Source of the DNA: Pseudomonadota bacterium
Lineage (GTDB): Bacteria; Desulfobacterota; Binatia; UBA9968
NCBI GenBank assembly: GCA_021324155.1
Contig: JAJPJQ010000038.1
Span: 83,904 to 147,903, forward strand
Length of the DNA: 64,000 nucleotides
Direction: 5' to 3'
Position numbers and translations under genes: made by a program. The notes beneath the pieces are model-generated. The model searched no databases. It saw nothing but the letters and a program-made list of their open reading frames with translations, and was not told the origin of the DNA. Below are positions 1 through 30,181 of the stretch, one piece after another. How positions within the stretch are numbered: position 1 is the first letter of the stretch; the number at the start of each line of letters is the position of its first letter.

Positions 1-60
1 TACGCGAGCGAAACAAACGGGTTAGATTTCCCAAGGCATAAAACTCACTTCCGGCGCCGC

Positions 61-99
61 TTGACACGGATTAATGTCCCTGATACTGGTCTGACCAGT
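61..99 (+). promoter_or_regulatory. Putative promoter (-35 TTGACA at 61-66) with a FadR/GntR-type operator palindrome ACTGGTCTGACCAGT at 85-99 overlapping the -10 region
   Basis: Perfect 7-1-7 inverted repeat CTGGTC-T-GACCAG resembling the E. coli FadR operator consensus. It lies 13 nt upstream of the GntR/FadR-family gene start (113), and TTGACA is 18 nt upstream of the palindrome. Confidence 0.45.
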
Positions 100-112
100 A
101 GACAGCTAGACC

Positions 113-850
113 ATGTTGCGGGCTATTCGGAAGACCCGGATTTACGAAGAGGTCGTGAGCCAGATCCGCGACCTCCTGCGCGAGGGCCGGTACAAGGCAG
201 GCGATCAGCTGCCGTCCGAGCGCGAGCTCGCCGAGACGTTCAAGGTCAGCCGCACGTCGGTGCGCGAGGCGCTCCGCGCCCTCGAAGCGCAGGGATTGAT
301 CGAGAGCCGCACCGGCGCCGGCAATTTCATCGCCGAGCTCCCGGTCGAATCGCTGGTCGCGCCGCTCGCGTCGCTGCTGCTGGAAGAGAAGGACGCGCTC
401 GCGGACATTTTCGAGATGAGGAAATTGATCGAGCCGCGCATCGCTTCACTCGCCGCCGAGCGCGCGACCAAAGACGATATCGAGCTGATGACGAAAATCC
501 TCGACAAGCAGCGTGACGCCGTGGCGCGCGGCGAGACCGGCGTGGAAGCCGACGCGGAGCTCCACTACGCGATCGCGCGCGCGACCCAGAACCACGCGCT
601 CGAGAAGCTCGTCACCGGCCTGATGGACGTGCTCAGCCACAGCCGCGAAGAATCGCTCCAGCCGCAGGACCGCCGCGAGGCGTCGATCGAATCGCATAGC
701 AAAATCGTCGCCGCCATCGCCGAGCACAACAAGGCGAAGGCGCGCGAAGCGATGCTCAAGCATATCGAGCGCGTCGAAGAGAACGTGCTCTCCGCAAAAA
801 AACCCCCGGCTTATACCGACGGTTCCATAGACGAGAGGAGGATTTCATGA
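113..850 (+). CDS. GntR-family transcriptional regulator, FadR subfamily (N-terminal wHTH plus C-terminal FCD domain)
   Basis: 245-aa ORF. The N-terminal sequence is of GntR HTH type and is followed by a helical FCD-like C-terminal half. The stop overlaps the next start (ATGA). Confidence 0.85.
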   Translation: MLRAIRKTRIYEEVVSQIRDLLREGRYKAGDQLPSERELAETFKVSRTSVREALRALEAQGLIESRTGAGNFIAELPVESLVAPLASLLLEEKDALADIFEMRKLIEPRIASLAAERATKDDIELMTKILDKQRDAVARGETGVEADAELHYAIARATQNHALEKLVTGLMDVLSHSREESLQPQDRREASIESHSKIVAAIAEHNKAKAREAMLKHIERVEENVLSAKKPPAYTDGSIDERRIS

Positions 851-3298: not shown

Positions 3299-4294
3299 AT
3301 GACAACCACTCCAAAAATCGATTACGAAAAGATCAAAGGCGTCCACAAGGTCCCGCTGGAAGAGCTCTACACCTCCGGCCACCGCACCTGCCAGGGCTGC
3401 GAGTCCGCGACGACCATGCGGGGCTTCATCAAGGCCTCGGGACCGCGCACGATCGTAACCGGCGCGACCGGCTGCATGTACGTCGCCAATACTTCGTACC
3501 TGACCACGCCGTGGATCGTGCCGTGGATGCACACCCAGCTCGGTGCGGGCGGGGCGTCCGCGGTCGGCATGGCGGCGGGCGTCCGCGCGCTCCAGCGCAA
3601 GGGCAAGATCAAGCAGGAGAAGATTAACATCATCAACTTCTCCGGCGATCTCGGCGCGGGCGACATGGGCATCGGCGGAATCTCGGGCGCGCTCCAGAGC
3701 GACTACGACCTGCTGATCATCATGTACGACAACGAGTCGGCGGCGAACACCGATATCCAGGCGACCGGACTCTCGATCTACGGCGCGCAGACGACGTTCA
3801 CGCCGCCCGGATCGAAGCACCGCATCATGCAGCGGCGCTGGAAGAAGAACGTCGCCGGCATGCTCGCGGTCGGCCACCCGACTTGCAAGTACGTCGCCAC
3901 CGCCTGCGCGACGTTTCCGCCGACCGACTATCTCAACAAGACGCGCAAGGCGCTCAGCATCGGCGGGCCGACGTTTATCCATACGTACGATCCATGCCCG
4001 AAGGGCTGGGACTATCACCCGCGCTATTCGAACGAGCTGGGCGAACTGGGCATCAAGTGCGGCATCTACCCGCTCTACGAGATCGTCGAAGGCAACGTCA
4101 TTTACACCTGGGACGCGCGGAAATCGGGCAAGGGCCGCATTCCGGTGAAGGAGTTCCTGCAGCGCCAGGGACGCTTCGAGCATCTGATCCAAGAGGACAT
4201 CGATTATATCCAGAAGGGCGTCGACGAGATGTGGGAAGAGTGGGAAATTCCCGGCGTCGCGCCGCTCAAGGGGATTTTGAAAGCCAGAATCTAG
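3299..4294 (+). CDS. 2-oxoacid:ferredoxin oxidoreductase beta subunit (TPP-binding)
   Basis: 331 aa. The motif GDLGAGDMGIGGIS is of the TPP/Mg-binding GDG type, and the N-terminal Cys cluster (CQGCESATT) is typical of OFOR beta. RBS TAAGGAGGA upstream. Confidence 0.85.
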   Translation: MTTTPKIDYEKIKGVHKVPLEELYTSGHRTCQGCESATTMRGFIKASGPRTIVTGATGCMYVANTSYLTTPWIVPWMHTQLGAGGASAVGMAAGVRALQRKGKIKQEKINIINFSGDLGAGDMGIGGISGALQSDYDLLIIMYDNESAANTDIQATGLSIYGAQTTFTPPGSKHRIMQRRWKKNVAGMLAVGHPTCKYVATACATFPPTDYLNKTRKALSIGGPTFIHTYDPCPKGWDYHPRYSNELGELGIKCGIYPLYEIVEGNVIYTWDARKSGKGRIPVKEFLQRQGRFEHLIQEDIDYIQKGVDEMWEEWEIPGVAPLKGILKARI

Positions 4295-4320
4295 CCCATT
4301 CCGTTCCGAATAGAGATACA

Positions 4321-4352
4321 AAAGAGGCCCTCACAAGAGGGCCTCTTTTTTT
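4321..4352 (+). terminator. Rho-independent terminator
   Basis: GAGGCCCT-cacaag-AGGGCCTC hairpin followed by a T7 run, immediately after the OFOR beta stop. Confidence 0.8.
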
Positions 4353-4547
4353 GCCTGCACCTTGGTCACAAGGCGTTAGGGCAAATGTGACCTATTGACT
4401 TACGATTAAGGTAAAGATTCCCGTCGAATCCGTGTAACACCCGATACTCGTTAAAACGCGCGCCACTGTATTATAGCCGCTATTCACCGGCCGGGTCTGC
4501 CCCCAGACGCTCCACCGGCCAACGACATCAACGGGGTAAGGAGCGCC

Positions 4548-6344
4548 ATGAACTACTTCCAACCCTATTCCCTTCCGGCCGATCAGGCGGTCCTCGCCGC
4601 GTGGGATTCGCAGCTCGCGGAGCTGGCGGAATGTCCGGCGCTCGTCACCGCGCTGGCGAAGCACCGCGAGATGCTCCCGCGCTTCGCGGAATCTTACATG
4701 AGACTCCGCGCGCTGCCGCGCGGCACGCGGCGGGCGCTGCAAAGAAAGCTCGCACGAGCGCGCGAGTTAATTTCAATTCAACCGGAGTGGCAGAGAAAGC
4801 TCGCCGGCTCACTCGCCGGCGCGGCGCTACTGCTCGCGCTCGCGCAGAGCGCGTCCGCGACGACGATGACCGTCACGACGAATGTGCCGGACATCAAAAG
4901 AGACAAGAAATGTTCACTGATCGAAGCGATTATCAATGCAAAGAAGCATAGGCGAGTTCACACCGACTGTCCCGCCGGGAGCGGAACAGACACGATTGTG
5001 CTTCCCGGCAATACGGTTTTCACATTCAACAAGATGGAACCCAGTTACATTCAAAGCTACAACGGTTTACCGACTGTCACCAGCATCATCACGATCGAAG
5101 GGAACGGCAGCACGCTCAGAAGAAATAGCAAATCGCAATTTGGCCTCGTCGATGTGAATAGCACTGGAAATTTAACGCTTAAGAATCTGACGATAAGTAA
5201 TTGGCAAGATCAGAATTTCAGCGCGATAACGAACCGCGGAAAACTGACAATCGTCAGTAGTACTATCTCCGGCAACATGGGATATGAAGGCGGCGCGATA
5301 TACAACTCATCCGGCGCCATTGCGGCGATCGAGAATAGCACAATTTCTGGCAACAGTGCCCGTCGTGGTGGAGGGATTCATAATTACCGCGGTACCATAA
5401 TCATAAACAACAGCTCAATTTCCCAAAACACAGCGGCATTTTCAGGCGGAGGCATAAGGAATGTCGGCGGTCACGCCGAAATCAATAACAGCATTATAAG
5501 CGAGAATCGCGCAATAGCACCGAAATATTACTCCGGCCATGGGGGTGGTATCGACAATATCGGTACCGCTGCGTATCTGCTTATCACATACAGTTCAATT
5601 GCTGAGAATCTCGCCAGTGGAGGCATCAGAAGTACGAATAAATATCGGCCGAGGCCAGCTGGTGAAGGCGGCGGAATATACAATGGCTTCCGATCGACCG
5701 TGACGATCAGCAATAGCTCAATCTTTAGCAATACCGCGGAGACCCCAGTCAACGGCTACATTGCGAGGGGCGGTGGGATACTTAGTAGTGCCGGTGGAGA
5801 TCTGCGCATTTCAAATTCTACGGTATCCGGAAACACTGCGATCAGCGGTGTCCCGGCAAAAGCTTACGGCGGCGGGATTTTCAGCTGCGTTTTTCAAATT
5901 ACGAGCAGCACAATTGCGGACAACAGAGCAAATGTTGGCGGCGGAATCTGGAGTTGTGAAAGTTCTTCACGCCTAGAGTTAGCCCGCAGTATTATTTCCG
6001 GAAATCAAGCTGACAAGGGAGCCGAGGTCCATAACGGCTTCTCTAGTTCGTCGAAACAACACCTTGCCGTAAACAATTTTAATCTGTTTGGAAACAATGG
6101 CGATCCCGGCGTTGTAGGTGTTACTCCAGGAGCATCCGACATCGTGCCCGGCTCCGGGATAATGCTCGATGACATCATTGCGCCGCTCGCAGACAACGGC
6201 GGCCCCACTCTAACGCATGCTCTTGCGGCCGGCAGCCTCGCCATCGATGCCGCGCCGGTCGACTCCGATTGTCCAGCTACCGATCAGCGCGCAACACCGC
6301 GACCGCAAGGCGGCGGCTGCGATATCGGTGCGTTTGAGAAGTAG
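4548..6344 (+). CDS. Surface/secreted right-handed parallel beta-helix repeat protein with CSLREA-type motif and C-terminal choice-of-anchor-Q-like domain. It carries an unusual ~85-aa N-terminal domain followed by a hydrophobic segment (paralog 1)
   Basis: 598 aa. RBS AAGGAG. Segments in order: N-domain (MNYFQPYSLPADQAVLAAWDSQLAEL...), hydrophobic LAGSLAGAALLLALAQSASA, CSLIEAI (CSLREA-like) motif, many NSTISGN/NSSISxN beta-helix repeats, and a C-terminal LADNGGPTLTHAL...CPATDQRATPRPQGGGCDIGAFE tail. Confidence 0.8.
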   Translation: MNYFQPYSLPADQAVLAAWDSQLAELAECPALVTALAKHREMLPRFAESYMRLRALPRGTRRALQRKLARARELISIQPEWQRKLAGSLAGAALLLALAQSASATTMTVTTNVPDIKRDKKCSLIEAIINAKKHRRVHTDCPAGSGTDTIVLPGNTVFTFNKMEPSYIQSYNGLPTVTSIITIEGNGSTLRRNSKSQFGLVDVNSTGNLTLKNLTISNWQDQNFSAITNRGKLTIVSSTISGNMGYEGGAIYNSSGAIAAIENSTISGNSARRGGGIHNYRGTIIINNSSISQNTAAFSGGGIRNVGGHAEINNSIISENRAIAPKYYSGHGGGIDNIGTAAYLLITYSSIAENLASGGIRSTNKYRPRPAGEGGGIYNGFRSTVTISNSSIFSNTAETPVNGYIARGGGILSSAGGDLRISNSTVSGNTAISGVPAKAYGGGIFSCVFQITSSTIADNRANVGGGIWSCESSSRLELARSIISGNQADKGAEVHNGFSSSSKQHLAVNNFNLFGNNGDPGVVGVTPGASDIVPGSGIMLDDIIAPLADNGGPTLTHALAAGSLAIDAAPVDSDCPATDQRATPRPQGGGCDIGAFEK

Positions 6345-6363: not shown

Positions 6364-8457
6364 ATGTATTATCACAGTGCTTATCGACTGCCTGCCGGCG
6401 AGACAATTATTACAGCCTGGGAATCGGCACTAGCTGACCTGCGAAACAGCGCGCCGTCTTTAAATCTGCCGGCTGAAACACCTGATGTCTTTCCTCGGTT
6501 CGCTCAAACCTATGTAAAACTATGCAACTTACCTCGAAAAAAGCGAAGAGAGATCCAAAGGGATATTCTCCATACCGGACCGTTGGCAAAAATCCAACTC
6601 AAATCACAACGTCAACTTGCATCATCTTTGGCGGCAGTCGCTCTATTGCTTGCTTTAGCTCAACCCGCCCCCGCAGCAAACATTGCCGTCAATACGAACA
6701 CACCCGCAATTAATGATGGAGACGGTAAATGTTCGCTCATCGAGGCAATCATTAATGCCAACGACGATGCCTCGACTCATCCCGATTGCGCAAAGGGCGA
6801 AGGAGCGGATGTCATTGTATTGCCCGCTGCGAGTATACACGTCGTCGAAGCTGCTTACGGCAATTATCAGGGTGAAACCGCGCTGCCGGTGATAACGAGC
6901 GAGATTACTATCGAGGGGAATAACAGCACGGTGACCCGCCACGTGAGCGAGCCATTGTTTCGTATTTTAGCTGTGCGTAGTGTCGGAAGACTTACACTAC
7001 AAAATTTAACGGTAAGCGGCGGAGCTCAAAACCATGGCGGCGGGATATTCAACAGTGGCACGCTAGCGATTACTAACAGCATTATCACAGGGAACAAAGC
7101 ACAGTATTTTGGTGGAGGTATATTCAATTCCTCCGACGGAGAATTGACAATTGAGACTAGCAGCCTGTCCAAGAATATCGCCAACATGGATGGTGGCGGT
7201 CTATTGGACTGTTACGGTAGTTTCAAGATACAGAACAGTACTATCTCAGGTAACTTCAGTCAGCGTGGTGGCGGCATCCATAAGTTTGATAATCAAATAG
7301 AATACGTCACCCCCACATCTAACTTCCCAAAGTGCAGCGTAACCTCGCACACGGGACTGATTGTTAACAGCACAATTTACGGCAATACCTCATCCGTCGG
7401 CGGCGGCATAGCCAATGGTGGCAAAATAACCATCATCAACAGCACAATCAGCAATAATGTAGCGCTGGCGCAAGGCGGCGGAATCATAAATTATAAACCC
7501 TTCCAAGGTGCTCCCAGTTATCTTTTCGTAGAAAGCAGCACGATTTCTCAGAACATTGCCGGTGACGAGCATTTCGGCTGGGGTGGCGGCATTATGAATC
7601 AATACAATGGCTATCTTTATCTAAGCCGCAGCATCGTCTCAGGTAACAAGGCGCTCACAGGGCCAGAAATAAAAACGGCTAGTGTGAACGATGTTGTTTA
7701 TATCGATGATTTTAATCTTCTTGGAAATAACGGCGACAGCGGACTGTACAATGTATATGTCGGCTACACGGATATTGTCCCTAAACAAAGCCTCAACAAA
7801 ATTCTCGGCCCCCTCAAAAATAACGGCGGCCCTACACTGACTCATGCTTTAGTTCCTGGCAGCCCCGCGTTGGACGCTGCGCCGGTCGATGCGAACTGCC
7901 CGGCGACCGATGGCCGCGGTGTTGCCCGCCCGCAAGGGTCTGCATGCGATATGGGCGCCGTTGAGGGTACTAGTTTGGCACCGGCGCCCCACCCGACCGG
8001 GCACAACTTCGTCGTAAGCTCCGTCAAGGCGCCGAAAACCATCAAGAACGGCGGCGGCACTGCTCCCGTAGCGGTCACGATTCGGAACGCAGGCAATCAA
8101 AACGAGATACTGAGCGATGCGTCCGTGCTCGGCGACGGCGCGACCACGGGCCTCGTCCGCCTGGCGATCGACGTCACCGATACCGACGGCGAGCAATGCC
8201 AGCCTGCGACTGTCTCTTTAGACGGCTCCAAGAATGGGAAGCTCTTCAGCAAGGGAGTGAAGGTCTTGTCCGGCGGCGCATCGTTGACGGTGAATTTTCT
8301 CGTGACGTACCGTTGCGACGCGCCGATGAACAAGCGAAATCCGGAAGCGGGCGACTACCGTAACAGCGCCTCGATATTTCCCGACGAGCTCGACGGCATT
8401 TCCGATTCTAACGCGAGCAGCACAATGGTCGGCGCCGCGACCAAGGTGACGCCATGA
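6364..8457 (+). CDS. Beta-helix / CSLREA / choice-of-anchor-Q-like protein with an extra C-terminal CARDB-like Ig domain (paralog 2, diverged)
   Basis: 697 aa from an ATG with RBS GGGGAGAGGGG. It has the same architecture and a conserved N-domain (MYYHSAYRLPAGETIITAWESALADL...PRFAQTYVKL). An extra ~180-aa C-terminal tail (VSSVKAPKTIKNGGGTAPVAVTIRNAGN...) is CARDB-like. Confidence 0.75.
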   Translation: MYYHSAYRLPAGETIITAWESALADLRNSAPSLNLPAETPDVFPRFAQTYVKLCNLPRKKRREIQRDILHTGPLAKIQLKSQRQLASSLAAVALLLALAQPAPAANIAVNTNTPAINDGDGKCSLIEAIINANDDASTHPDCAKGEGADVIVLPAASIHVVEAAYGNYQGETALPVITSEITIEGNNSTVTRHVSEPLFRILAVRSVGRLTLQNLTVSGGAQNHGGGIFNSGTLAITNSIITGNKAQYFGGGIFNSSDGELTIETSSLSKNIANMDGGGLLDCYGSFKIQNSTISGNFSQRGGGIHKFDNQIEYVTPTSNFPKCSVTSHTGLIVNSTIYGNTSSVGGGIANGGKITIINSTISNNVALAQGGGIINYKPFQGAPSYLFVESSTISQNIAGDEHFGWGGGIMNQYNGYLYLSRSIVSGNKALTGPEIKTASVNDVVYIDDFNLLGNNGDSGLYNVYVGYTDIVPKQSLNKILGPLKNNGGPTLTHALVPGSPALDAAPVDANCPATDGRGVARPQGSACDMGAVEGTSLAPAPHPTGHNFVVSSVKAPKTIKNGGGTAPVAVTIRNAGNQNEILSDASVLGDGATTGLVRLAIDVTDTDGEQCQPATVSLDGSKNGKLFSKGVKVLSGGASLTVNFLVTYRCDAPMNKRNPEAGDYRNSASIFPDELDGISDSNASSTMVGAATKVTP

Positions 8458-10000
8458 ACTACTTCCAGCCCTACTCTCTTCCGGCCGATCAGGCGGTCCT
8501 CGCCGCGTGGGATTCGCAGCTCGCCGAGTTAGCGGACTGCCCTGCTTTCGTCAATGCCCTCGCGAAGCAGCGCGAGTTGTTCCCGCGCTTCGCGGCGCAC
8601 CACGCGCGCCTGCGGGTGCTGCAGCGCGGCACGCGCAGAGCGCTGCAAAGAAAGCTCGGCGAGCGCATGAGCTGATTTCAATTCAACCTGAATCGCAGAG
8701 AAAGCTCGCCGGCTCACTCGCCGGCGCGGCGCTGCTCCTCGCGCTCGCGCAAAGCGCGAGCGCGGCGACAATCAACGTAACGACAAACATCCCCGACATC
8801 AACGACGGCGACGGCAAGTGCTCGCTGATCGAGGCGATCGTTAATGCGAACGACGACGCAGCGACGCATCCCGACTGCGTCACGGGAGACGGGGCGGACA
8901 CGATCGTGCTGCCGAAGAAAGCTAAATTCAATTTTTTCGTAGCAACGATAAAGACACCGATTACAATTCAGGGCAACGACAGTACCTTCGTTCGAACAAC
9001 ATTGACGGTAAACGCTTCGGGAGATTTCAACGTAGATGGGATCAGCGTACTAGGTGGCAAGCGTTGCTTTATAAACGTTGGCGTCCTGACGATCGAGAAC
9101 AGCAAAATTTCAGGCTGTGCATTTGCCAGCGCAGGTGCAGTTTTCAACGGAGGGACTGCCACTATTTCCAACAGTGTTATTTCAGGAAACAAAGCGTATG
9201 GGAATGGCGAATATTCCTGGACAGGAACCGGCGGAGCAGCAATAAATAGCGGCACAATGACGATCCTGAACAGCGAGATATCCGACAACGCGGCGTACGG
9301 GAATGATTTTGGCAGCGCCATTGGCGGCGGCATCGATAATCAGGCTGGTACTCTTATCATTCAAAATAGCACCATAGCTAGGAATCTGGCTATTTCCCAT
9401 TCTCATGATGCTATTGGCGGTGGCATAAGCAATTCGGGCCGTTCATATTTGAGTGTTCGAAACAGCACAATTTCAGGCAACGAAGTGTCCAGAGGGAAGA
9501 GCCGCGGCGGAGGTGTTAACAATTGGGGATATCTTCACGTAGAAAATAGCACGATTACTGGGAATTCAGCCTCTACAGGAGGCGGCGTCGTCAGTTTCAG
9601 TTACGGCCGACCGAACCTCGTCTACCTACGCGAGAATGTTTTCGCTAACAACGAAGCTATCGTTGGTCGGGAAATTTCTACAGATGCCGTAATACAATAC
9701 GATGTTCTGAATTTATTGGGTATTAACGGTGATTCAGGTGTCTACGGCTTCACGCCTGGACCAACCGACATAGTGCCAAACGTTGCGGTTAAGAAAATCC
9801 TTGCTTCCCTAAAAAATAACGGCGGCTCTACCCTCACCCACGCTCTCGTCAAGGGCAGCCCCGCCATCGATGCCGCTCCCGTCGATGCGAATTGTCCGGC
9901 AACCGATCAGCGCGGCGTGGCGCGGCCGCAGGGAGGCGGCTGCGACATCGGCGCGGTGGAGTACACGGGCAAAACCTCGAAGAAGAACAAGAATAATTAG
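8454..10000 (+). pseudogene. Third beta-helix/CSLREA paralog, disrupted by a frameshift between the N-terminal domain and the hydrophobic segment
   Basis: The ATG at 8454 overlaps the paralog-2 stop (ATGA). A 73-codon ORF (8454-8675) encodes an N-domain near-identical to paralog 1. The rest of the protein (ELISIQPESQRKLAGSLAGA...CDIGAVEYTG) continues in another frame, ORF 8507-10000. The region is 1 nt shorter than the paralog-1 counterpart between AAAGAAAGCTCG and ATTTCAATTCAACC. Confidence 0.6.
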
Positions 10001-22545: not shown

Positions 22546-24162
22546 TTAGGGATCAACGGGATCAGGCCGAGAACGCACAAAATGAAGCGGCAGGATTTTT
22601 CCCCTCGGGCTCGCGTATGGCGCCTCGCGGCTGATTCTGAAAGTACCCGCTTCGGCCCAAATTTTCGTTTGGAATGCATTGCCTCGCTGCCCGCGCCCGA
22701 GTTCTTCCCGCAATCGTGTCAAAAGCCGCCGCTCGTCGATCCCCGACACGACGGGATGGACGCGCAGCGTTAGGCGCGTCTGTCCGCCCGCGTCTTCTTC
22801 CTCGACGAGCTGATAATCGCCGGGCGCGCCGCCGAATTCGCGGGGCAGCTCGCTTTCGAAGAAATCGTGCAGGTCGCCGTAAAAGTAATTCATGCCTTCG
22901 CTGGTGAATTTCTCGTAGCTGCGAATGTGGTGCAGGTGTAATTTCAGGCCCACCCGCTCGAATGCGCAGCCGCAGTTTCTAGTTTCGAACGTCGCATAGT
23001 CGCCGTTGGCGACGTTCAGGAGCAACTTGGCGTATCCGTCGTGAAGCGTCGTGCAAAGAAGCCGCGGCATGCGCGATGCGCCCCCTTCGATCGAAACAGG
23101 AAACGCAATGACCGCCAGCCGATGTTGCTGCACATGCATGTCATCTACATGACCCGGGTTCGCGCATGCCATCGCTACCGAGCCGCCGCCTTCGAAGGCA
23201 TAATCCGTCACGGCAGCGGCGCCGACGCTCGCGATGGCGGCGCGCTTCGCTTCGGTAAAAGGCTCGCCGCCAAGATGAAATTTCGTGCCCTCGATAGCGA
23301 TGCCCTTTTGTCCCGCCGCTTTCGCGATTCTCGTCGCGTTGCTGGCGCTGGTCTTGATGCAGCAGTTTCTTCCATTCCGTTTCACTTCGTTGATCCAGGC
23401 GACGATGCGGTCGACCTCCTCCAATGAGGTAAACTCCGGCCTTGCGGCGCCGGGACCATAGATATTGGCCATCGCGATAAAGAGATGCGTCATGCAAGTA
23501 TTGTAAAGCCGCGAGGCGCTGTTGCTCGTCGGCATACGACGCGCAAACCAGCGCTCTGTCGGGATACCGAGACGCGCGTGCTGCACGATCGCGCGTATCC
23601 CTCCGCCCGAGGGTAGAATCGCCTCGAAGATACCGTGAGCGCGGGAGAAAAGATCGTGCGCGGAATAAAATAAACAATGCGAAGACGTCCGTTCGCCCCA
23701 GCGCTCGAGCGAGCCGACCGACGCGATCGGCGCATTGTTGGTCCCGCTGCTGCGCGTGGTCACGCCCACGGACGGCGCGGGCGGCGCGAAATCGCTCGGA
23801 GAGACCCGAAACGACAGGCTTCCTCGGACAACATCGGTTTTTCCCTTGAACTCATCCGCCATGAAGTACACGCCTTCTTTCGCGAGCTTCTCCAGACTCT
23901 CTTCCACGCCGTCGCGCATGACCGCGTCTCTCAGATCGCCGAGTCCACAGCCCGCCATCTTGAATAGCTTGAGGTATGGGCTTCTCGGCCAATCGAAAAT
24001 GTGTCGCTGCGCCAGGTCGAGAAATCTCTCTGCGCGCGATGCGAGCGCGAGGCGGACCGCGGCCTCCGCTTGTTCGATGGTCACGCGTTGACGGAAAAAA
24101 GCGGGTAGCGCCCGGAGCAGGCGGTAATTCTGTTGGATGCGACTTTGCAGATCGTTAGTCAA
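22546..24162 (-). CDS. Putative adenylate-forming enzyme, PaaK/CapK/F390-synthetase-like (family assignment tentative)
   Basis: 538 aa. TTG start preceded by AGGTGG. SSGT-containing segment and overall size fit PaaK-like ligases. No firm motif match is possible by eye. Confidence 0.45.
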   Translation of the reverse strand: MTNDLQSRIQQNYRLLRALPAFFRQRVTIEQAEAAVRLALASRAERFLDLAQRHIFDWPRSPYLKLFKMAGCGLGDLRDAVMRDGVEESLEKLAKEGVYFMADEFKGKTDVVRGSLSFRVSPSDFAPPAPSVGVTTRSSGTNNAPIASVGSLERWGERTSSHCLFYSAHDLFSRAHGIFEAILPSGGGIRAIVQHARLGIPTERWFARRMPTSNSASRLYNTCMTHLFIAMANIYGPGAARPEFTSLEEVDRIVAWINEVKRNGRNCCIKTSASNATRIAKAAGQKGIAIEGTKFHLGGEPFTEAKRAAIASVGAAAVTDYAFEGGGSVAMACANPGHVDDMHVQQHRLAVIAFPVSIEGGASRMPRLLCTTLHDGYAKLLLNVANGDYATFETRNCGCAFERVGLKLHLHHIRSYEKFTSEGMNYFYGDLHDFFESELPREFGGAPGDYQLVEEEDAGGQTRLTLRVHPVVSGIDERRLLTRLREELGRGQRGNAFQTKIWAEAGTFRISREAPYASPRGKILPLHFVRSRPDPVDP

Positions 24163-24446: not shown

Positions 24447-25607
24447 TCAGGGCTTGACGATCAGCGACGGCTCTTCTTTCGCCTTCTGCTTCGCCTGGGC
24501 GAGATAGTACGCGATGCTTTTTTGCACGAGGCCGGTAAGAAATGCGATATCGAGCATTCCGATGCCGCCTTCGGCGAGCTGAAGCGCGACCGCGAGCGCG
24601 AGCAGCGCCGGCTCGCGCCGCCCCCCTTCCGCCAGGCACCACGACGCGTCTTCCAACCGGCGGCGGAAAATCGCGCCGCTCTCGCCGGCAAATATTTCCC
24701 GCGCCGCGTCGCGGACGATCGCCGCGAGCCGCTCTTCTTTCTGCGCGTCGTTCAGCACGAGCCGGCTTTCCTGCGCCTGCTCGATGCGGTCGATGTAAGG
24801 CTTCATCCAGTCTTCGTCGACGAGCCAAAAGCGAAACGCCGGATCTTCGAGCAGCCGGCGCGAGCGGCCGCGCCAATCCTCGCTCTGCGCCGAGTCTTTC
24901 GCCAACCGGCTGTATATCGGATGCTCGACTTCGCGCGCCTTCGCCGCGTTGAACGCCGCGCGCATCGAGGCGAACTGTCCGGTTTTCTGGCCCGCAGCCT
25001 TCGCCTTCTCGTAGGCGTTATAAAGGATTCCGTCCGCATAGTCCCACGGCGCCGGCGCCATCGGGAGATTGGCGTTCTTTTGAATTTCCTCGGCCTGCGC
25101 GCGCAGATCTTTTCGTTTGACGACCCCGCCGTCGGCCTGGAGCAGGCCGGTGCGGTCGCTCACTACGCCCTGGAGCAGCTGGAGACCGCCGCCGGCGTGC
25201 GGCCTGACGAGCCAGACGAGGCGGTCGCCGGCGCCGTCGATGATCGTGAGATAGCCTTCGATGTCCGACATCGGCGCGACCGCGGATCGTTTGCCGCCTG
25301 ACGCGTCTTCCGCGCGCGTGACCGTCAAACCGCGCTGCTCCAGCTTGAACAGCGACCGGCGCGCCTCGCGCTTGAGATCTTTTGCCGTCGCGGCCGTCTC
25401 GATTTTGATCAGCGCCTCGACGGCGGCGGGATCGGCTATGCGGCCGAGGAGAAACGCGACGGCGAGATCGACGGCGGGGCTTTCTCCCAGCCGCCGCGTG
25501 AGCGGCCCGATCGACGCCGCCGCGAGCGCCGCCTGGTCGAATCCGGTTTGCTGAAGCTCTTCCAGCCCGCGCTTCAGCGCGGCTTCGCGCGCGTCTTTCT
25601 TCGCCAT
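24447..25607 (-). CDS. Hypothetical protein (386 aa, mostly helical, no recognisable domain)
   Basis: Clean ATG start MAKKDAREAAL. Codirectional with and immediately upstream of the duplicated fragment and ligase-like gene. Confidence 0.55.
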   Translation of the reverse strand: MAKKDAREAALKRGLEELQQTGFDQAALAAASIGPLTRRLGESPAVDLAVAFLLGRIADPAAVEALIKIETAATAKDLKREARRSLFKLEQRGLTVTRAEDASGGKRSAVAPMSDIEGYLTIIDGAGDRLVWLVRPHAGGGLQLLQGVVSDRTGLLQADGGVVKRKDLRAQAEEIQKNANLPMAPAPWDYADGILYNAYEKAKAAGQKTGQFASMRAAFNAAKAREVEHPIYSRLAKDSAQSEDWRGRSRRLLEDPAFRFWLVDEDWMKPYIDRIEQAQESRLVLNDAQKEERLAAIVRDAAREIFAGESGAIFRRRLEDASWCLAEGGRREPALLALAVALQLAEGGIGMLDIAFLTGLVQKSIAYYLAQAKQKAKEEPSLIVKP

Positions 25608-26784: not shown

Positions 26785-27225
26785 ATGGGAATGTTAAAAA
26801 TTGACGGCGTGACGCACTGGTCGATTCCCGTCAACGATCTCGACGAGGCGGAGCGGTTCTACGGCGAAGTCCTCGGGCTTGAGCACAAGGGAAGGCTCGG
26901 CAGCTCGAAGATGTCCTGCTTCGCCGCGGGCAGTCACTCGATTCTCCTCTGCCAGCGCAAGGAAGCGCTCGAGCGCACGCCGGAGCAGGACAATCGCCTG
27001 CACCACGCGTTCGATGTCAGTCCGGAGATGTTCGAGCAGGCATGCAAAGTCTTCGAGCGCATCGGCGTCAAGATCGCCGAGCCGATCGTCTACCGCGCGA
27101 AAGGCCACTTCACCGGCCGGGAGCTTTATTTTCTCGACCCGAGCGGCAACATGCTGGAACTCCGCGACGCGAGCTGGAAAACCGGCATGCCGACGCCGAC
27201 GTTCGAGGATATCGTCAGCAATTAG
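26785..27225 (+). CDS. VOC-family (glyoxalase/bleomycin-resistance/extradiol dioxygenase fold) protein
   Basis: 146 aa. RBS AGGAGG. The sequence and size fit VOC-family proteins. Confidence 0.7.
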   Translation: MGMLKIDGVTHWSIPVNDLDEAERFYGEVLGLEHKGRLGSSKMSCFAAGSHSILLCQRKEALERTPEQDNRLHHAFDVSPEMFEQACKVFERIGVKIAEPIVYRAKGHFTGRELYFLDPSGNMLELRDASWKTGMPTPTFEDIVSN

Positions 27226-27256: not shown

Positions 27257-28357
27257 TTACGGCCGGCTTGAAAAGTACTTGTCGTAAATACGTTGGTAGC
27301 CGCCGTTCTCTTTGAGCGTCAACAAGGCATTGTTGACGTGCAATCGATACGGACTGTTCTGCGGAAAAACGATCCCGTAGCTTTCCTTCCGGAAAATCGG
27401 GCCGACGAGGGCGACTTTTCCTTTTCCCTGGTGCGCCGCATAATACAGCAGGACCGGCGAGTCGAAAACGACGGCGTCGGCCTGCCCCTTCAGCAGCGCC
27501 TCGTACGCCTGCTCGATTCTGGGAAATTCCGTCACCGAAATATCTCGCTGGCGTAAATAGAGCGCCGAGGTGCTGCCCGTCGTCGTCGCGACCTGCTTCC
27601 CGGGAAGATCCTCCGGCCCCTTGATGTCGCCTTGCAGCTGCTGGACCGTCAGCGAGCTGGTGACGCTCGCGGTGAAATACGCGACGAAAAGAACGCTCGT
27701 AAACATCCACAGCACGGCGATCGCGCGCCCGAATGCGCTGCGCGGCATCTGGTCCGCCTGCGTCGCGAGCGTCGACGCCGCCCACCAGCACGCCTCGAAG
27801 ATACCCGGAAAATACGTGTGGTGCTCGATCATGCCGTGCGGGTGCCGGCACTCCGACCACCAGATAAAATGCGCCGGCACGAGAATAAACAGCAGCGTCA
27901 ATCCCACGAACGGCAGGACCGCGGAAGACCACATGAGCCTGAGCGTCTCGCCGACGGAGCCGCCGCCCGGCTCGTCGCGGACCATGATCTGCAGCCCCGC
28001 GTCGAACATCGGCTGGGAAAAGTCGAAGTCGTTGCTGCGCTCGGCCGTTACGGAGATCGCCGCGATGCCGAGATCGGCTTTTCCCGTTTTGACGGAGTCG
28101 AGCAGCTCCGGCACCGTCGCATGCTCCGCGTAGGTGCTAGAGAGCCGCAGCTCCTGCGCAATCGCGTCCCAGAGATCGACGCTGAAGCCGGTGAGCCGGT
28201 TGTTTTCTTTAAAGACGAAGGGCGGGATTTCGCGCGTGGCGACGCGCAGCTGCTTCGCGGGCGCCGCGGCGTCGACCGCGGCCGGCAACAATCCACCGAA
28301 GAGAGCGAAAAGCGCGATCGCGAAGATCGCTATGCGAACGCGATCAATACTCCCCAT
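27257..28357 (-). CDS. Ionotropic glutamate receptor-like ligand-gated channel. A periplasmic SBP_bac_3-type ligand-binding domain is interrupted by an M1-pore loop-M2 channel module (GluR0-like architecture)
   Basis: Start MGSIDRV (ORF extends to 28501 via an R/K-rich artefact). The pore region GIFEACWWAASTLATQADQMPRSAFGRAIAVLWMFTSVLFVAYFTASVTSSLTV parallels the eukaryotic iGluR consensus FGIFNSLWFSLGAFMQQG...[34 protein letters not shown]. No M4 helix, no TxVGYG filter. Confidence 0.75.
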   Translation of the reverse strand: MGSIDRVRIAIFAIALFALFGGLLPAAVDAAAPAKQLRVATREIPPFVFKENNRLTGFSVDLWDAIAQELRLSSTYAEHATVPELLDSVKTGKADLGIAAISVTAERSNDFDFSQPMFDAGLQIMVRDEPGGGSVGETLRLMWSSAVLPFVGLTLLFILVPAHFIWWSECRHPHGMIEHHTYFPGIFEACWWAASTLATQADQMPRSAFGRAIAVLWMFTSVLFVAYFTASVTSSLTVQQLQGDIKGPEDLPGKQVATTTGSTSALYLRQRDISVTEFPRIEQAYEALLKGQADAVVFDSPVLLYYAAHQGKGKVALVGPIFRKESYGIVFPQNSPYRLHVNNALLTLKENGGYQRIYDKYFSSRP

Positions 28358-29237
28358 CGTGCCCGCGCGCCGCATCCGCCGCCTTATGCTCCGCCTTCGC
28401 GTGTTCGGTTGTGCTTTGTTCGCCTTTCGCCTGCTCGGTACTCTGTTCGGCTTTCGCCTTTTCTTCGCTCTTGAGATTCTCGGCCTTCGGGCCGAAAGCA
28501 ATCAGCGGATCGTCCCCCGCTTTGAGCGTCGAAGCAATCTTATCCAGAGCCCAAAATCTTTCCGGCGCGGTAGGATGGGTCGAAAGAAATCCGCGCTCGG
28601 TGCTGCCGGGCATCTCGATCGCGATCCGCTTGAAGACCTCTTTTCCCTCGCCGACGTTGTAGCCGGCGCGGTGCGCCCACAACAGACCGTACAGGTCCGC
28701 CTCGCGCTCGCGGTCGCGGTCGAACTTGGCGGTCGCGAGCTGCACCATGCGCGCGGCGACCTGCTGTCCGATGTTGCCGCCGAAAACTCCCGCGGGGATC
28801 GATAACGCGGTTCCGAAAACGTCTTGCACCACGCCCTGGCGGACATGGCCGCGGAGCGCGTGTCCGATCTCGTGGCCGAGCACGGCGGCCAGCTCGTCGT
28901 CGTTCTTGAGGAAGCGCAGCATACCGCGCGTAATCCACACGGTCTTGCCGTCGGTCCACGCATTGACGGCGTCGAGATTGATTTGCGACGCCTTCACTTG
29001 ATCGGTGCGCGCGGCGAAGACGAAATGGATCACCGACTGCGTTCCGGTCGCCTCAATGAGCCGGCCGGCGACTTCCTCGACGCGCGCCTGCTGCTTCTGC
29101 TGCCATTCTTTGGATTGGGCCTCGAGCTGCTCTTTGATTTTCTTTTCCTCTTCGGAGGTGATGCGCGGGACGTTGTTGACGCACGCCGGCAGCGCGCAAA
29201 CGAACAACAAAAGCACGAGTTTGACACTTCGTCTCAT
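28344..29237 (-). CDS. M48-family zinc metallopeptidase lipoprotein (HExxH)
   Basis: Start MRRSVKLVLLLFVCALPAC (lipobox). HEIGHAL motif. The 3' end overlaps the iGluR-like gene start by 14 nt. Confidence 0.75.
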   Translation of the reverse strand: MRRSVKLVLLLFVCALPACVNNVPRITSEEEKKIKEQLEAQSKEWQQKQQARVEEVAGRLIEATGTQSVIHFVFAARTDQVKASQINLDAVNAWTDGKTVWITRGMLRFLKNDDELAAVLGHEIGHALRGHVRQGVVQDVFGTALSIPAGVFGGNIGQQVAARMVQLATAKFDRDREREADLYGLLWAHRAGYNVGEGKEVFKRIAIEMPGSTERGFLSTHPTAPERFWALDKIASTLKAGDDPLIAFGPKAENLKSEEKAKAEQSTEQAKGEQSTTEHAKAEHKAADAARGHDGEY

Positions 29238-29389: not shown

Positions 29390-30181
29390 ATGGCGAACGA
29401 AAAGGCGGTGGAGTATCGCGTGGAGAACGGCGTTGCGCTCGTCGAGCTCAACCGGCCGCCGGTCAACAGCTACACGCACGAGCTCTTGCGCGAGCTCGAC
29501 GACGCGATCCTCCAGGCGCGCTTCGACGACAACGTTCATGTGCTGGTGCTGACCGGAAAAGTCGAAAAGTTTTTTTCCGCCGGCGCCGACATCAACATGC
29601 TCGCGAACAAGCCGCTTTCGTTTAAGAATAATTTCGCGCTCCACGGGCACGAAGTGCTCATGCGGCTCGAAAACACGCCCAAGCTCGCCATCGCGGCGAT
29701 CAACGGCCACGCCGTCGGCGGCGGCCTCGAGATCGCGATGGCGTGCGACATCCGCATCGCGCGCAAGGAAGGCGGCCGGATGGGGCTGGCCGAGATCAAT
29801 TTGGGCGTCATGCCGGGCATGGGCGGGACGCAGCGGCTGCCGCGGCTCGTCGGCAAAGGGCGCGCGCTCGAGCTCTGCGCGACCGGCCGCACGATCGCGT
29901 TCGAAGAGGCGCTCGAGATCGGGCTCATTCATTACATCTACGAGCGCGAGAACTTCCTCGGCCAGGTGATGGACTATGCGCGCCAGTTCGTTACGCCCAA
30001 CAAGGCGAGCCTCGCCGTCGGCAAGGTCAAGCGCGCGGTGCAGACCGGCTGGGAGCTCTCGCTCCCCGACGGCCTCGCGTTCGAGCGCGAAGTGCTGGCG
30101 CAGACCTTCGGCAGCGAAGACGGCAACGAAGGCGTCAAAGCGTACATCGAAAAAAGAACCGCGCAGTTCAAGGGCAGATAA
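29390..30181 (+). CDS. Enoyl-CoA hydratase/isomerase (crotonase) family protein
   Basis: 263 aa. RBS GCGGAGG. VLTGKVEKFFSAGADI and GHAVGGGLEIAMACD crotonase motifs. Confidence 0.85.
   Translation: MANEKAVEYRVENGVALVELNRPPVNSYTHELLRELDDAILQARFDDNVHVLVLTGKVEKFFSAGADINMLANKPLSFKNNFALHGHEVLMRLENTPKLAIAAINGHAVGGGLEIAMACDIRIARKEGGRMGLAEINLGVMPGMGGTQRLPRLVGKGRALELCATGRTIAFEEALEIGLIHYIYERENFLGQVMDYARQFVTPNKASLAVGKVKRAVQTGWELSLPDGLAFEREVLAQTFGSEDGNEGVKAYIEKRTAQFKGR

Follow-up and report, generated by a model that had tools for sequence, protein, structure and literature searches.

A GluR0-family receptor homologue with a TLATQAD-type pore loop and its overlapping M48 peptidase neighbour in a Binatia-group soil bacterium

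The window analysed here is a stretch of 64,000 nucleotides (nt) from a Binatia-group soil bacterium, in which two minus-strand open reading frames (ORFs) filled positions 27257–29237. The downstream ORF encoded a homologue of the ionotropic glutamate receptors (iGluRs), hereafter the receptor, and the upstream ORF, which overlapped it, encoded a metalloprotease of the M48 family, hereafter M48. The analysis supported the assignment of the receptor as a prokaryotic iGluR-type subunit, in which a periplasmic ligand-binding domain (LBD) is predicted to be split around a module consisting of an M1 helix, a re-entrant pore helix, and an M3-like helix. Judged from the alignments, the receptor is a member of the subfamily of Nostoc punctiforme GluR0 (NpGluR0) and of the 'Group 2' proteins of Ger et al., a kind of protein that has already been described. 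It is rather probable that the receptor forms part of a tetrameric, periplasm-facing, amino-acid-gated cation channel of the inner membrane, belonging to the NpGluR0-type branch, and that M48 is an independent neighbour.

The receptor was arranged in the order of signal peptide, S1, M1, pore loop, M3-like helix, and S2 (Table 1). The Pfam profile SBP_bac_3 matched residues 37–363 as a single interrupted domain with 95.4 bits, which passed its cut-off. Lig_chan (57.0 bits, cut-off 30.8) and Lig_chan-Glu_bd (40.0 bits, cut-off 30) matched residues 154–256 and 36–128, respectively, and Ion_trans_2 reached 22.4 bits, just below its cut-off of 22.5. The best solved relative was the ligand-binding core of GluR0 from Nostoc punctiforme complexed with L-glutamate (PDB code 2pyy, 2008). 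It was aligned at E = 1.1e-77 in two blocks, residues 36–132 and 242–364, around an insert of 110 residues.

The structure of the receptor was predicted as a monomer with AlphaFold2 (AF2) from 31 homologues, and the mean predicted local distance difference test (pLDDT) score was 81.5. The score was ~77–84 across the channel module. Helices of the model were formed by residues 4–21 (signal), 135–143 (pre-M1), 148–169 (M1), 182–197 (pore), and 208–241 (M3-like), with a loop at residues 198–207, and the S1 and S2 halves of the LBD comprised residues 37–127 and 256–362, respectively. Nothing followed S2 that could be an M4 helix, and the ORF ended four residues after the last S2 helix. In a Foldseek search with the model, 2pyy was the first match, with a TM-score of 0.97 (normalized to the target) and a root-mean-square deviation of 1.4 Å, and it was followed by chains containing the LBD and transmembrane domain (TMD) of AMPA receptors (~370 columns, E ~1e-23). 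When the 116-residue channel insert alone was compared with the PDB by phmmer, AMPA-receptor chains were aligned over M1, the pore loop, and M3 at E = 4e-7 to 8e-6. None but iGluRs occurred among the 60 best PDB matches of the insert.

An earlier note on this DNA had described the two ORFs and quoted the peptides PGIFEACWWAASTLATQA and PRSAFGRAIAVLWMFTSVLFVAYFTASVTSSLTV; positions, lengths, and peptides were all present as it gave them. Its proposal of an SBP_bac_3-type LBD split by a channel module was borne out by Pfam, by the two-block alignment with 2pyy, and by the AF2 model, and both Lig_chan and SBP_bac_3, the profiles that it had pointed to, scored above their cut-offs. The GluR0-like architecture with two transmembrane (TM) helices, lacking M4 and TxVGYG, likewise agreed with the AF2 model and with the alignment of the filter. 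The same note had raised the possibility that the insert was a TM hairpin of generic type lacking a pore loop, but a pore helix and loop were present in the AF2 model and the insert matched iGluRs.

Residues T104 and R107 of S1 and residues T263 and D299 of S2 were invariant in the 31 homologues, and S262 was kept in at least 90% of the sequences. The residues used as the mark of agonist contact, an S1 arginine that holds the alpha-carboxylate and an S2 aspartate or glutamate that holds the alpha-amino group (PMC2950845), were found as R107 and D299, and both were identical in the alignment with 2pyy. By analogy with this structure, L-glutamate is the probable ligand. The amino-terminal domain and the M4 helix of the eukaryotic iGluRs were both absent, as the signal peptide stood directly before S1 and the protein ended at residue 366.

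When conservation was expressed as the majority-residue fraction within the receptor subfamily, the pore helix (0.92) and the filter (0.90) were the most conserved segments of the receptor; the M3-like helix reached 0.82, S2 0.79, and S1 0.72. The signal peptide was the least conserved segment (0.33). That the pore helix and filter are conserved best speaks for a pore still in use and against a relic. The motif WWAxxTLATQA[DE]xMP[RK] was found by a motif search in 118 of the 120 top homologues (55–92% identity, cyanobacterial proteins included; the two misses were not inspected).

In the phmmer alignment with GluA2, residues T199, Q200, and D202 of the receptor were paired with the Q/R site, the residue next to it, and the +4 acidic site, respectively. 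In GluA2 numbering these partners are presumably Q586, Q587, and D590. The PRS..GR and YFTA....LTV segments were paired with the M2–M3 loop and the M3 gate motif, and the gate-like motif that the earlier note had pointed out, AYFTASVTSSLTV, was the segment aligned with the GluA2 gate. M1, the pore helix, and M3 were all covered, at E ~1e-6 for the insert alone and ~1e-20 for the LBD and TMD together, and the elements in common were GIF, W, Q, D (the +4 site), PRS..GR, and TA....LTV. Unlike GluA2, the receptor had no amino-terminal domain, M4, or C-terminal tail, and it carried a threonine at the Q/R position; the identity was ~20%. The pore had been called strikingly close to the iGluR consensus: the homology was real, but the identities with GluA2 over the two quoted peptides were just 5 of 18 and 12 of 34.

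The filter of the receptor was TLATQADQ. Neither TxVGYG nor a significant Ion_trans_2 match, the two features of a K+-selective GluR0-type channel, was found. As a control, three TVGYG-bearing relatives of the GluR0 family were scored with the same profiles, and gave 52–59 bits for Lig_chan (57 for the receptor) and 55–60 bits for Ion_trans_2 (22.4 for the receptor). The equal Lig_chan scores of the TVGYG relatives indicate that the family as a whole resembles the eukaryotic channel profile, and the Lig_chan score was therefore rejected as evidence that this pore is especially close to the eukaryotic ones. On these comparisons, the receptor is distinguished by the lost K+ signature and not by an extra closeness to the eukaryotic receptors. 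The earlier description of the pore as iGluR-like rather than K-channel-like was thus right about the absent K+ signature but too strong, as the TVGYG relatives equalled the receptor on Lig_chan. The WWA..T of the pore helix and P...GR were matched column for column with the K-type relatives. The filter was two residues shorter than that of the K-type relatives and one residue shorter than that of GluA2.

The wider superfamily comprised 1090 clusters at 50% identity (E <= 1e-30). When the filters of the 150 best cluster representatives at this identity were surveyed, 61 were K-like, 15 were of the TLATQA type, and 75 were others. The representatives P0247, P0257, P0278, and P0390 had loops such as LGAAAGQQGDAPRS or GAAGGQQPYAP, which were nearer to the AMPA-receptor sequence 'LGAFMQQGCDISPRS' ('MQQG') than was the loop of the receptor.

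The closest known relative was NpGluR0. A protein of Nostoc sp. UCD121 (locus L076; loci are denoted by L numbers throughout) had an LBD 96–100% identical to 2pyy, and its insert carried CWWAAATLATQADEMPKG...FVAYFTASATTSLTVQQLQ. Because the Nostoc protein with the LBD of 2pyy has the same pore, the receptor is, by sequence comparison, an orthologue-level relative of NpGluR0. The full-length Nostoc proteins shared the length of the receptor, the order S1-M1-P-M3-S2, and the WWAxxTLATQA[DE]xMP pore. The two differed in overall identity (~58–63%), in host (Binatia lineage and cyanobacterium), and in the filter, which was ADQMPR in the window and ADEMPK in Nostoc. They also differed in gene context: the gene of the putative M48 lipoprotein was upstream in the window, and the genes near the receptor gene in Nostoc were MazG/DUF2227, aldehyde dehydrogenase (ALDH), or TPR-M48.

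Prokaryotic S1-M1-P-M2-S2 proteins were divided by Ger et al. in 2010 into Group 1, with a K+ filter, and Group 2, without a recognizable one, and for the latter the annotation 'putative glutamate-sensitive ion channel' was proposed (PMC2950845). The entries of Group 2 included NP_486951.1, ABA20613.1 ('Ionotropic glutamate receptor precursor'), and ZP_00108493.1 (PMC2950845). The group then comprised 10 sequences with no Binatia member (PMC2950845), whereas relatives of the receptor were now found in 349 species genomes when a single genome of each species was scanned with a pattern. The receptor fitted the definition of the group exactly, with S1 and S2 around two TM helices and a P loop, no K+ filter, an S1 arginine, and an S2 aspartate. 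The three entries named above are taken here to be Nostoc or Anabaena proteins.

To our knowledge, the K+-selective GluR0 of Synechocystis (slr1257) is the only functionally characterized prokaryotic iGluR homologue. It shared with the receptor the same architecture, with no amino-terminal domain and no M4, and presumably the same topology with the LBD outside. Members with the K+-type filter were 35–46% identical to the receptor along the full length. They differ in the filter, which is TxVGYG in Synechocystis GluR0 and the two residues shorter TLATQADQ in the receptor. K+ conduction by Synechocystis GluR0 and its effect on cell volume during KCl stress have been described, and a physiological role was first reported for it in 2026 (PMC13099474).

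The 80 best loci from the scan were examined for their neighbourhood. They came from Binatia, Nostocales, Gloeobacterales, Alkalinema, Armatimonadota/Abditibacteriaceae, Chloroflexota, Acidobacteriota, and metagenome-assembled genomes (MAGs) labelled Deltaproteobacteria or Thermodesulfobacteriota. The window itself is of the Binatia lineage, with 92% identity in the receptor and 99% identity in the neighbouring ALDH to a MAG named 'Candidatus Binatia bacterium'. The whole Binatia-type synteny, with an ALDH 92–94% identical to that of the window, was also seen in L004 (labelled Verrucomicrobiia) and in L007 and L008 (labelled Syntrophobacteraceae); these labels are probably errors of binning or classification rather than signs of horizontal transfer. 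In databases, the family of the receptor is labelled 'transporter substrate-binding domain-containing protein'.

The two genes at 27257–29237 were flanked on both sides by genes of the opposite strand, a convergent glyoxalase/VOC gene at 26785–27225 (+) and a divergent enoyl-CoA hydratase (ECH) gene at 29390–30181 (+). In addition to the start given in Table 1, the receptor gene had an in-frame ATG at 28375, which would give a protein of 372 residues and a 32-nt overlap with the M48 gene. This ATG was preceded by AAGGCGG, and AAGGAGG was found at the same place in L001 (92% identical); the length of 372 residues was also seen in two database homologues. With its better Shine-Dalgarno-like sequence, the start at 28375 appears at least as plausible as the start at 28357. 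An alternative start of the M48 gene was GTG 29261. The M48 and receptor genes overlapped whichever receptor start was taken (14 or 32 nt). A scan for promoters and terminators gave none above the expectation from shuffled sequences, and no evident terminator was present between the two genes. As the genes overlap on one strand with opposite-strand genes on both flanks, they are very probably co-transcribed in this lineage, and they are possibly coupled in translation. An arginine-rich upstream extension of the receptor ORF to TTG 28501 was an alternative frame of the M48 tail, and its translation is unlikely.

The product of the upstream gene was matched by Peptidase_M48 (PF01435) with 86.3 bits (cut-off 20.3). 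The HExxH motif was followed by a conserved DREREAD segment in the M48 homologues. In 12 homologues the lipobox was LSAC, LSSC, LAGC, LTAC, or LASC, that is, L-[SAT]-[AGS]-C. The LPAC of the window M48 had a proline at position -2, outside the usual consensus of L-[ASTVI]-[GAS]-C. The nearest solved relatives were 3c37 ('Peptidase, M48 family'; E = 1.3e-15) and then the protease domain of BepA (E ~6e-4). M48 scored 48.6 bits in the LoiP equivalog test (cut-off 365) and 39.1 bits in the BepA equivalog test (cut-off 570; NCBIfam NF052399 and NF052400 are the LoiP/BepA pair), and no TPR domain was found by Pfam. It thus shared with BepA, LoiP, and 3c37 the HExxH M48 fold family and had a putative lipoprotein-type signal with a conserved cysteine; its differences were the missing TPR domain and a Lys/Glu-rich C-terminal tail. 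This tail (window positions 28347–28500, minus strand) was a low-complexity segment of ~50 residues rich in lysine, glutamate, and alanine, and its last residue was tyrosine. The terminal ...[DG][EG]Y was kept in L001–L004, L010, and L086 and was not kept in L005–L009. M48 homologues of ~50% identity were located upstream of MacA/MacB/OEP efflux genes or beside DegP-like Trypsin-PDZ proteases. The M48 enzymes HtpX, BepA, LoiP, and Ste24 are endopeptidases of protein quality control and not releasers of free amino acids. By this analogy, M48 would fit an envelope quality-control endopeptidase and not a releaser of free amino acids.

An M48 relative was directly upstream of the receptor gene in 10 of the 80 loci, L001–L010 only, with receptors at least 71% identical to that of the window. 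In the 70 other receptor loci, no relative of the window M48 was found within 6 kb by tblastn and by a hidden Markov model (HMM) built from the M48 family. The common order in L001–L010 was ArgJ, ALDH, ECH, M48, receptor, VOC (in some loci), polysaccharide deacetylase, and two unknown conserved genes. Because the unrelated flanking genes were equally conserved, the conservation of the pair had no independent weight, and the adjacency in the ten loci was rejected as evidence of coupling on account of the wholly shared gene order. The ten paired loci are a single evolutionary observation, and adjacency across lineages without shared synteny was not found. Two M48 homologues of ~50% identity, P0187 and P0184, had been suspected to share contigs with receptor homologues, since the lengths of the longest contigs agreed (8175 and 2605); their neighbours were DegP-like, no receptor was present, and the agreement was attributed to chance.

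The two genes overlapped by 14–17 nt in the window, L001–L004, and L006, were separated by ~25 nt in L005 and L007–L009, and stood at least 75 nt apart in L010. A window-type synteny without a receptor gene (tblastn negative) was found in L086 (JGI 3300048080, Ga0494003_0001077, positions 4001–5431). Its genes were, in order, ALDH, ECH, M48, VOC, deacetylase, and an unknown gene, of which ALDH, ECH, and VOC were on the strand opposite to M48, and the gap between M48 and VOC was just 160 nt. The M48 of L086 was 87% identical to that of the receptor-bearing L010. Therefore, the receptor gene was lost or gained between close relatives while M48 stayed.

Peptidase genes of other kinds were located near receptor genes elsewhere. 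In 12 Nostocales loci, the receptor gene was preceded, in the same orientation, by a gene for a TPR and Peptidase_M48 protein (662–665 residues, 103 bits, several predicted TM segments), at a distance of 457–811 nt in four loci and 2–5.5 kb in the rest. The Nostocales proteins scored 12–14 bits on the HMM of the Binatia M48 and belong to a different M48 subfamily. An ancestral M48–receptor cassette shared with Nostocales was ruled out by this difference of subfamily, by the distance of at least 457 nt, and by the presence of the gene in just 12 Nostocales loci. In L090, from a metagenome of the European Nucleotide Archive (ENA), a trypsin-family gene at 1–570 (+), with PF00089 at 46.5 bits and a GDSGG motif, ended 10 nt before a receptor gene at 580–1686, whose product was of the TLATQAEEMP type and 50% identical to the receptor of the window. 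A divergent trypsin-like gene and a PmbA/TldD gene were near the receptor gene in Alkalinema, a convergent FtsH gene was beside it in Gloeobacterales, and a divergent subtilase gene was beside it in L066 (Nostoc). Only three of the neighbouring peptidases were both co-oriented and secreted, and their families and compartments were unrelated.

A mechanism may be proposed as follows. The signal peptide would export the N-terminus and so place the S1/S2 clamshell in the periplasm. The clamshell would close when L-glutamate or a similar amino acid binds, and would pull the M3-like helix, whose movement would open a pore with the re-entrant loop TLATQADQMP as its lining. The K+ signature has been lost from this loop but the invariant acidic residue, the aspartate at the iGluR +4 position, has been kept, so that the channel is most likely cation-selective and not strictly K+-selective. 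M48 would be a periplasmic envelope protease that had resided at the locus before the receptor, and the receptor gene, placed directly behind it, would share its transcript without depending on it.

Several points weigh against this reading of an amino-acid-gated cation channel beside an independent protease. The ligand was assigned from the ~65% identity of the LBD to glutamate-bound 2pyy. We infer a tetramer, whereas the structure prediction was of a monomer, and the gating, conductance, ion selectivity, and periplasmic location of the receptor were likewise inferred. No published measurement of conductance or selectivity for a TLATQAD-type pore was found in the literature searched, and we know of no member with this pore that conducts ions. 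As to the independence of M48, the junction was kept tight, with an overlap or a gap of at most ~25 nt in 9 of the 10 loci, while M48 diverged to ~61–67% identity, which fits selection for co-expression. When the immediate neighbours of at least 140 residues were counted after dereplication by family, peptidases made up 6 of 47 families (7 of 54 with the extra loci), at a nominal binomial p of ~0.003–0.03 against an assumed background of 3–5%. The recurrence of peptidases near receptor genes is a weak, post hoc hint, and the presence of peptidase genes of other families next to the receptor gene in several unrelated lineages leaves room for a link to proteolysis.

There is a slim chance that the pore is degenerate and does not conduct, the receptor being a membrane-anchored amino-acid sensor or binding protein with the insert as an anchor or oligomerization module; the absent K+ signature, the narrowly missed Ion_trans_2 cut-off, the silence of the literature searched on conduction by this pore type, and the transporter-like database label would all suit it. 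Such a role as a mere anchor would not lead one to expect the pore helix and filter to be the most conserved segments from Binatia to Nostocales. The gate-region YFTA....LTV and PRS..GR were also retained, and the AF2 model kept the full M1-P-M3 geometry. That the receptor is still a K+ channel like Synechocystis GluR0, serving the homeostasis of K+ and cell volume in spite of the missing TxVGYG, is equally improbable. It would accord with the K+ conduction and cell-volume effect of that protein, with the full-length homology to the TVGYG relatives, and with the WWA..T and P...GR in common, but the shorter filter has no GYG motif, whose backbone carbonyls are required for K+ selectivity, and the Ion_trans_2 score was far from the 55–60 bits of the K-type relatives. 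A different role for M48 is also unlikely, namely that it and the receptor are a functional two-gene module in which the protease either makes or destroys the agonist or has a part in the maturation or turnover of the channel, and the channel reports periplasmic proteolysis. The tight junction, the prediction that both products face the periplasm, the peptidase genes beside receptor genes in other lineages, and their nominal enrichment can be cited for such a module. However, the pair was confined to one lineage with equally conserved unrelated flanks, 70 of the 80 loci had no relative of the window M48, and L086 kept M48 without a receptor. The peptidases of the other lineages were of unrelated families, and several were cytoplasmic or housekeeping proteins (FtsH, TldD) or were encoded by divergent or convergent genes. 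The enrichment test was post hoc, with a background of 3–5% assumed from general knowledge, and no peptidase neighbour was found in four further lineages sampled after the idea of enrichment arose. M48 enzymes, moreover, generally act as quality-control endopeptidases.

The overlap of the M48 gene with the receptor gene is thus an arrangement of one lineage, and a functional coupling of the products is unsupported. The earlier note had taken the overlap to imply co-expression and had suggested that the protease could make or remove the ligand: the upstream gene of the putative lipoprotein with its HEIGH motif and the 14-nt overlap were present as described and co-transcription is very probable, but a functional link did not hold up against the single lineage, the 70 loci without M48, and L086. 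The conservation of the pair, also raised there, was found in ten loci, but all ten belonged to one syntenic Binatia lineage. It is very improbable that the TLATQAD-type channel is wired to periplasmic proteolysis in Binatia and, independently, in some cyanobacteria with upstream M48 or trypsin-family genes. Were such wiring true, a protease expressed together with the receptor would process it or would release its agonist from peptides, and the cell would register the breakdown of extracellular proteins as an ionic or electrical signal, carried by a pore that is non-selective and possibly permeable to Ca2+. No other prokaryotic pore would then stand as close in function to the eukaryotic iGluR pores.

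For the origin of glutamate receptors, by fusion of a binding protein to the pore of a K+ channel, prokaryotic iGluR homologues are the reference. The TLATQAD branch among them has a wide distribution, and its pore loop is more conserved than its LBD. The selectivity of its pore would show whether the loss of K+ selectivity, a key step towards the eukaryotic receptors, had already happened in bacteria. What this pore conducts is a matter of the whole subfamily and is not particular to this locus; the gene described here is one more member of the branch, and its M48 neighbour by itself opens no new question.

Table 1. Features of the receptor and M48 genes in the window, and of neighbouring genes at other receptor loci
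Feature	Position	Strand	Basis or remark
Receptor gene, GluR0-family (NpGluR0-type) iGluR homologue, 366 residues	27257..28357	-	ATG 28357, stop 27259-27257
S2 half of LBD, residues 242-366, to the protein end	27260..27634	-	Aligns with 2pyy residues 101-223
M3-equivalent inner helix, residues 208-241, with AYFTASVTSSLTV as counterpart of the GluA2 M3 gate motif	27635..27736	-	AF2 model, phmmer
Re-entrant pore helix (182-197) and filter loop (198-207), FPGIFEACWWAASTLATQADQMPRSAF	27737..27814	-	AF2 model, conservation
M1 helix, residues 148-169, after pre-M1 helix 135-143	27851..27916	-	AF2 secondary structure; phmmer alignment to GluA2 M1
S1 half of LBD, residues 36-128	27974..28252	-	Aligns with 2pyy residues 4-100
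Predicted signal peptide, ~residues 1-31 (hydrophobic helix 4-21, then AVDAAA)	28265..28357	-	AF2 helix and low-confidence linker; cleavage putative
Overlap of M48 stop and receptor start, 14 nt, ATGGGGAGTATTGA	28344..28357	-	Counted from ATG 28357
M48 zinc metalloprotease, predicted periplasmic lipoprotein, 297 residues	28344..29237	-	ATG 29237, stop 28346-28344
HEIGH zinc-binding motif, residues 122-126 of M48	28860..28874	-	HExxH invariant in aligned homologues
Candidate lipobox L-P-A-C, residues 16-19, end of M48 signal peptide	29181..29192	-	Cys kept in 12 of 12 aligned homologues
TPR-M48 gene of Nostocales	L020:3196-5193; equivalents in L032, L035, L039, L048, L049, L051, L052, L056, L073, L075, L078	+ (L020)	Pfam
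Loci of the second receptor clade	L011, L012, L016, L023, L044, L050, L054, L058, L061, L062, L068 (e.g. L011:4565-8981; L016:1067-1735)		

Receptor genes had other recurrent neighbours. In a second receptor clade (Table 1), a same-strand cluster contained genes for an NMT1-like binding protein, Amidohydro_2 proteins (often two paralogues), and an Amdase-family enzyme, which is arylmalonate decarboxylase/racemase-like. A small protein of ~200–220 residues with a secretin domain was encoded directly upstream of the receptor in six loci of this clade. MazG and DUF2227 genes were beside the receptor gene in many Nostocales.

In the Gloeobacterales-type loci (L013, L043, and L055), an aminotransferase gene was directly upstream of the receptor gene. 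In two of these three loci, the receptor gene was followed on the same strand by a gene for a homologue of the TMEM175-family K+ channels (111.6 bits), located at L043:7080–7655 and L055:7144–7719 (+); L043 is labelled 'uncultured cyanobacterium'. In L017, from an Abditibacteriaceae MAG, the receptor gene was flanked on the same strand by genes for large paralogous proteins with DUF6785 and DUF6784, located at 3435–5753 and 7221–9338 (+).

In the window itself, two further conserved proteins of 538 and 386 residues were encoded at 22546–24162 (-) and 24447–25607 (-), respectively, and had no Pfam match at E <= 0.001. In most of the related genomes, synteny of both with the receptor locus was kept, and the 538-residue protein had a tandem paralogue of ~51% identity in L001, L003, L004, and L005.

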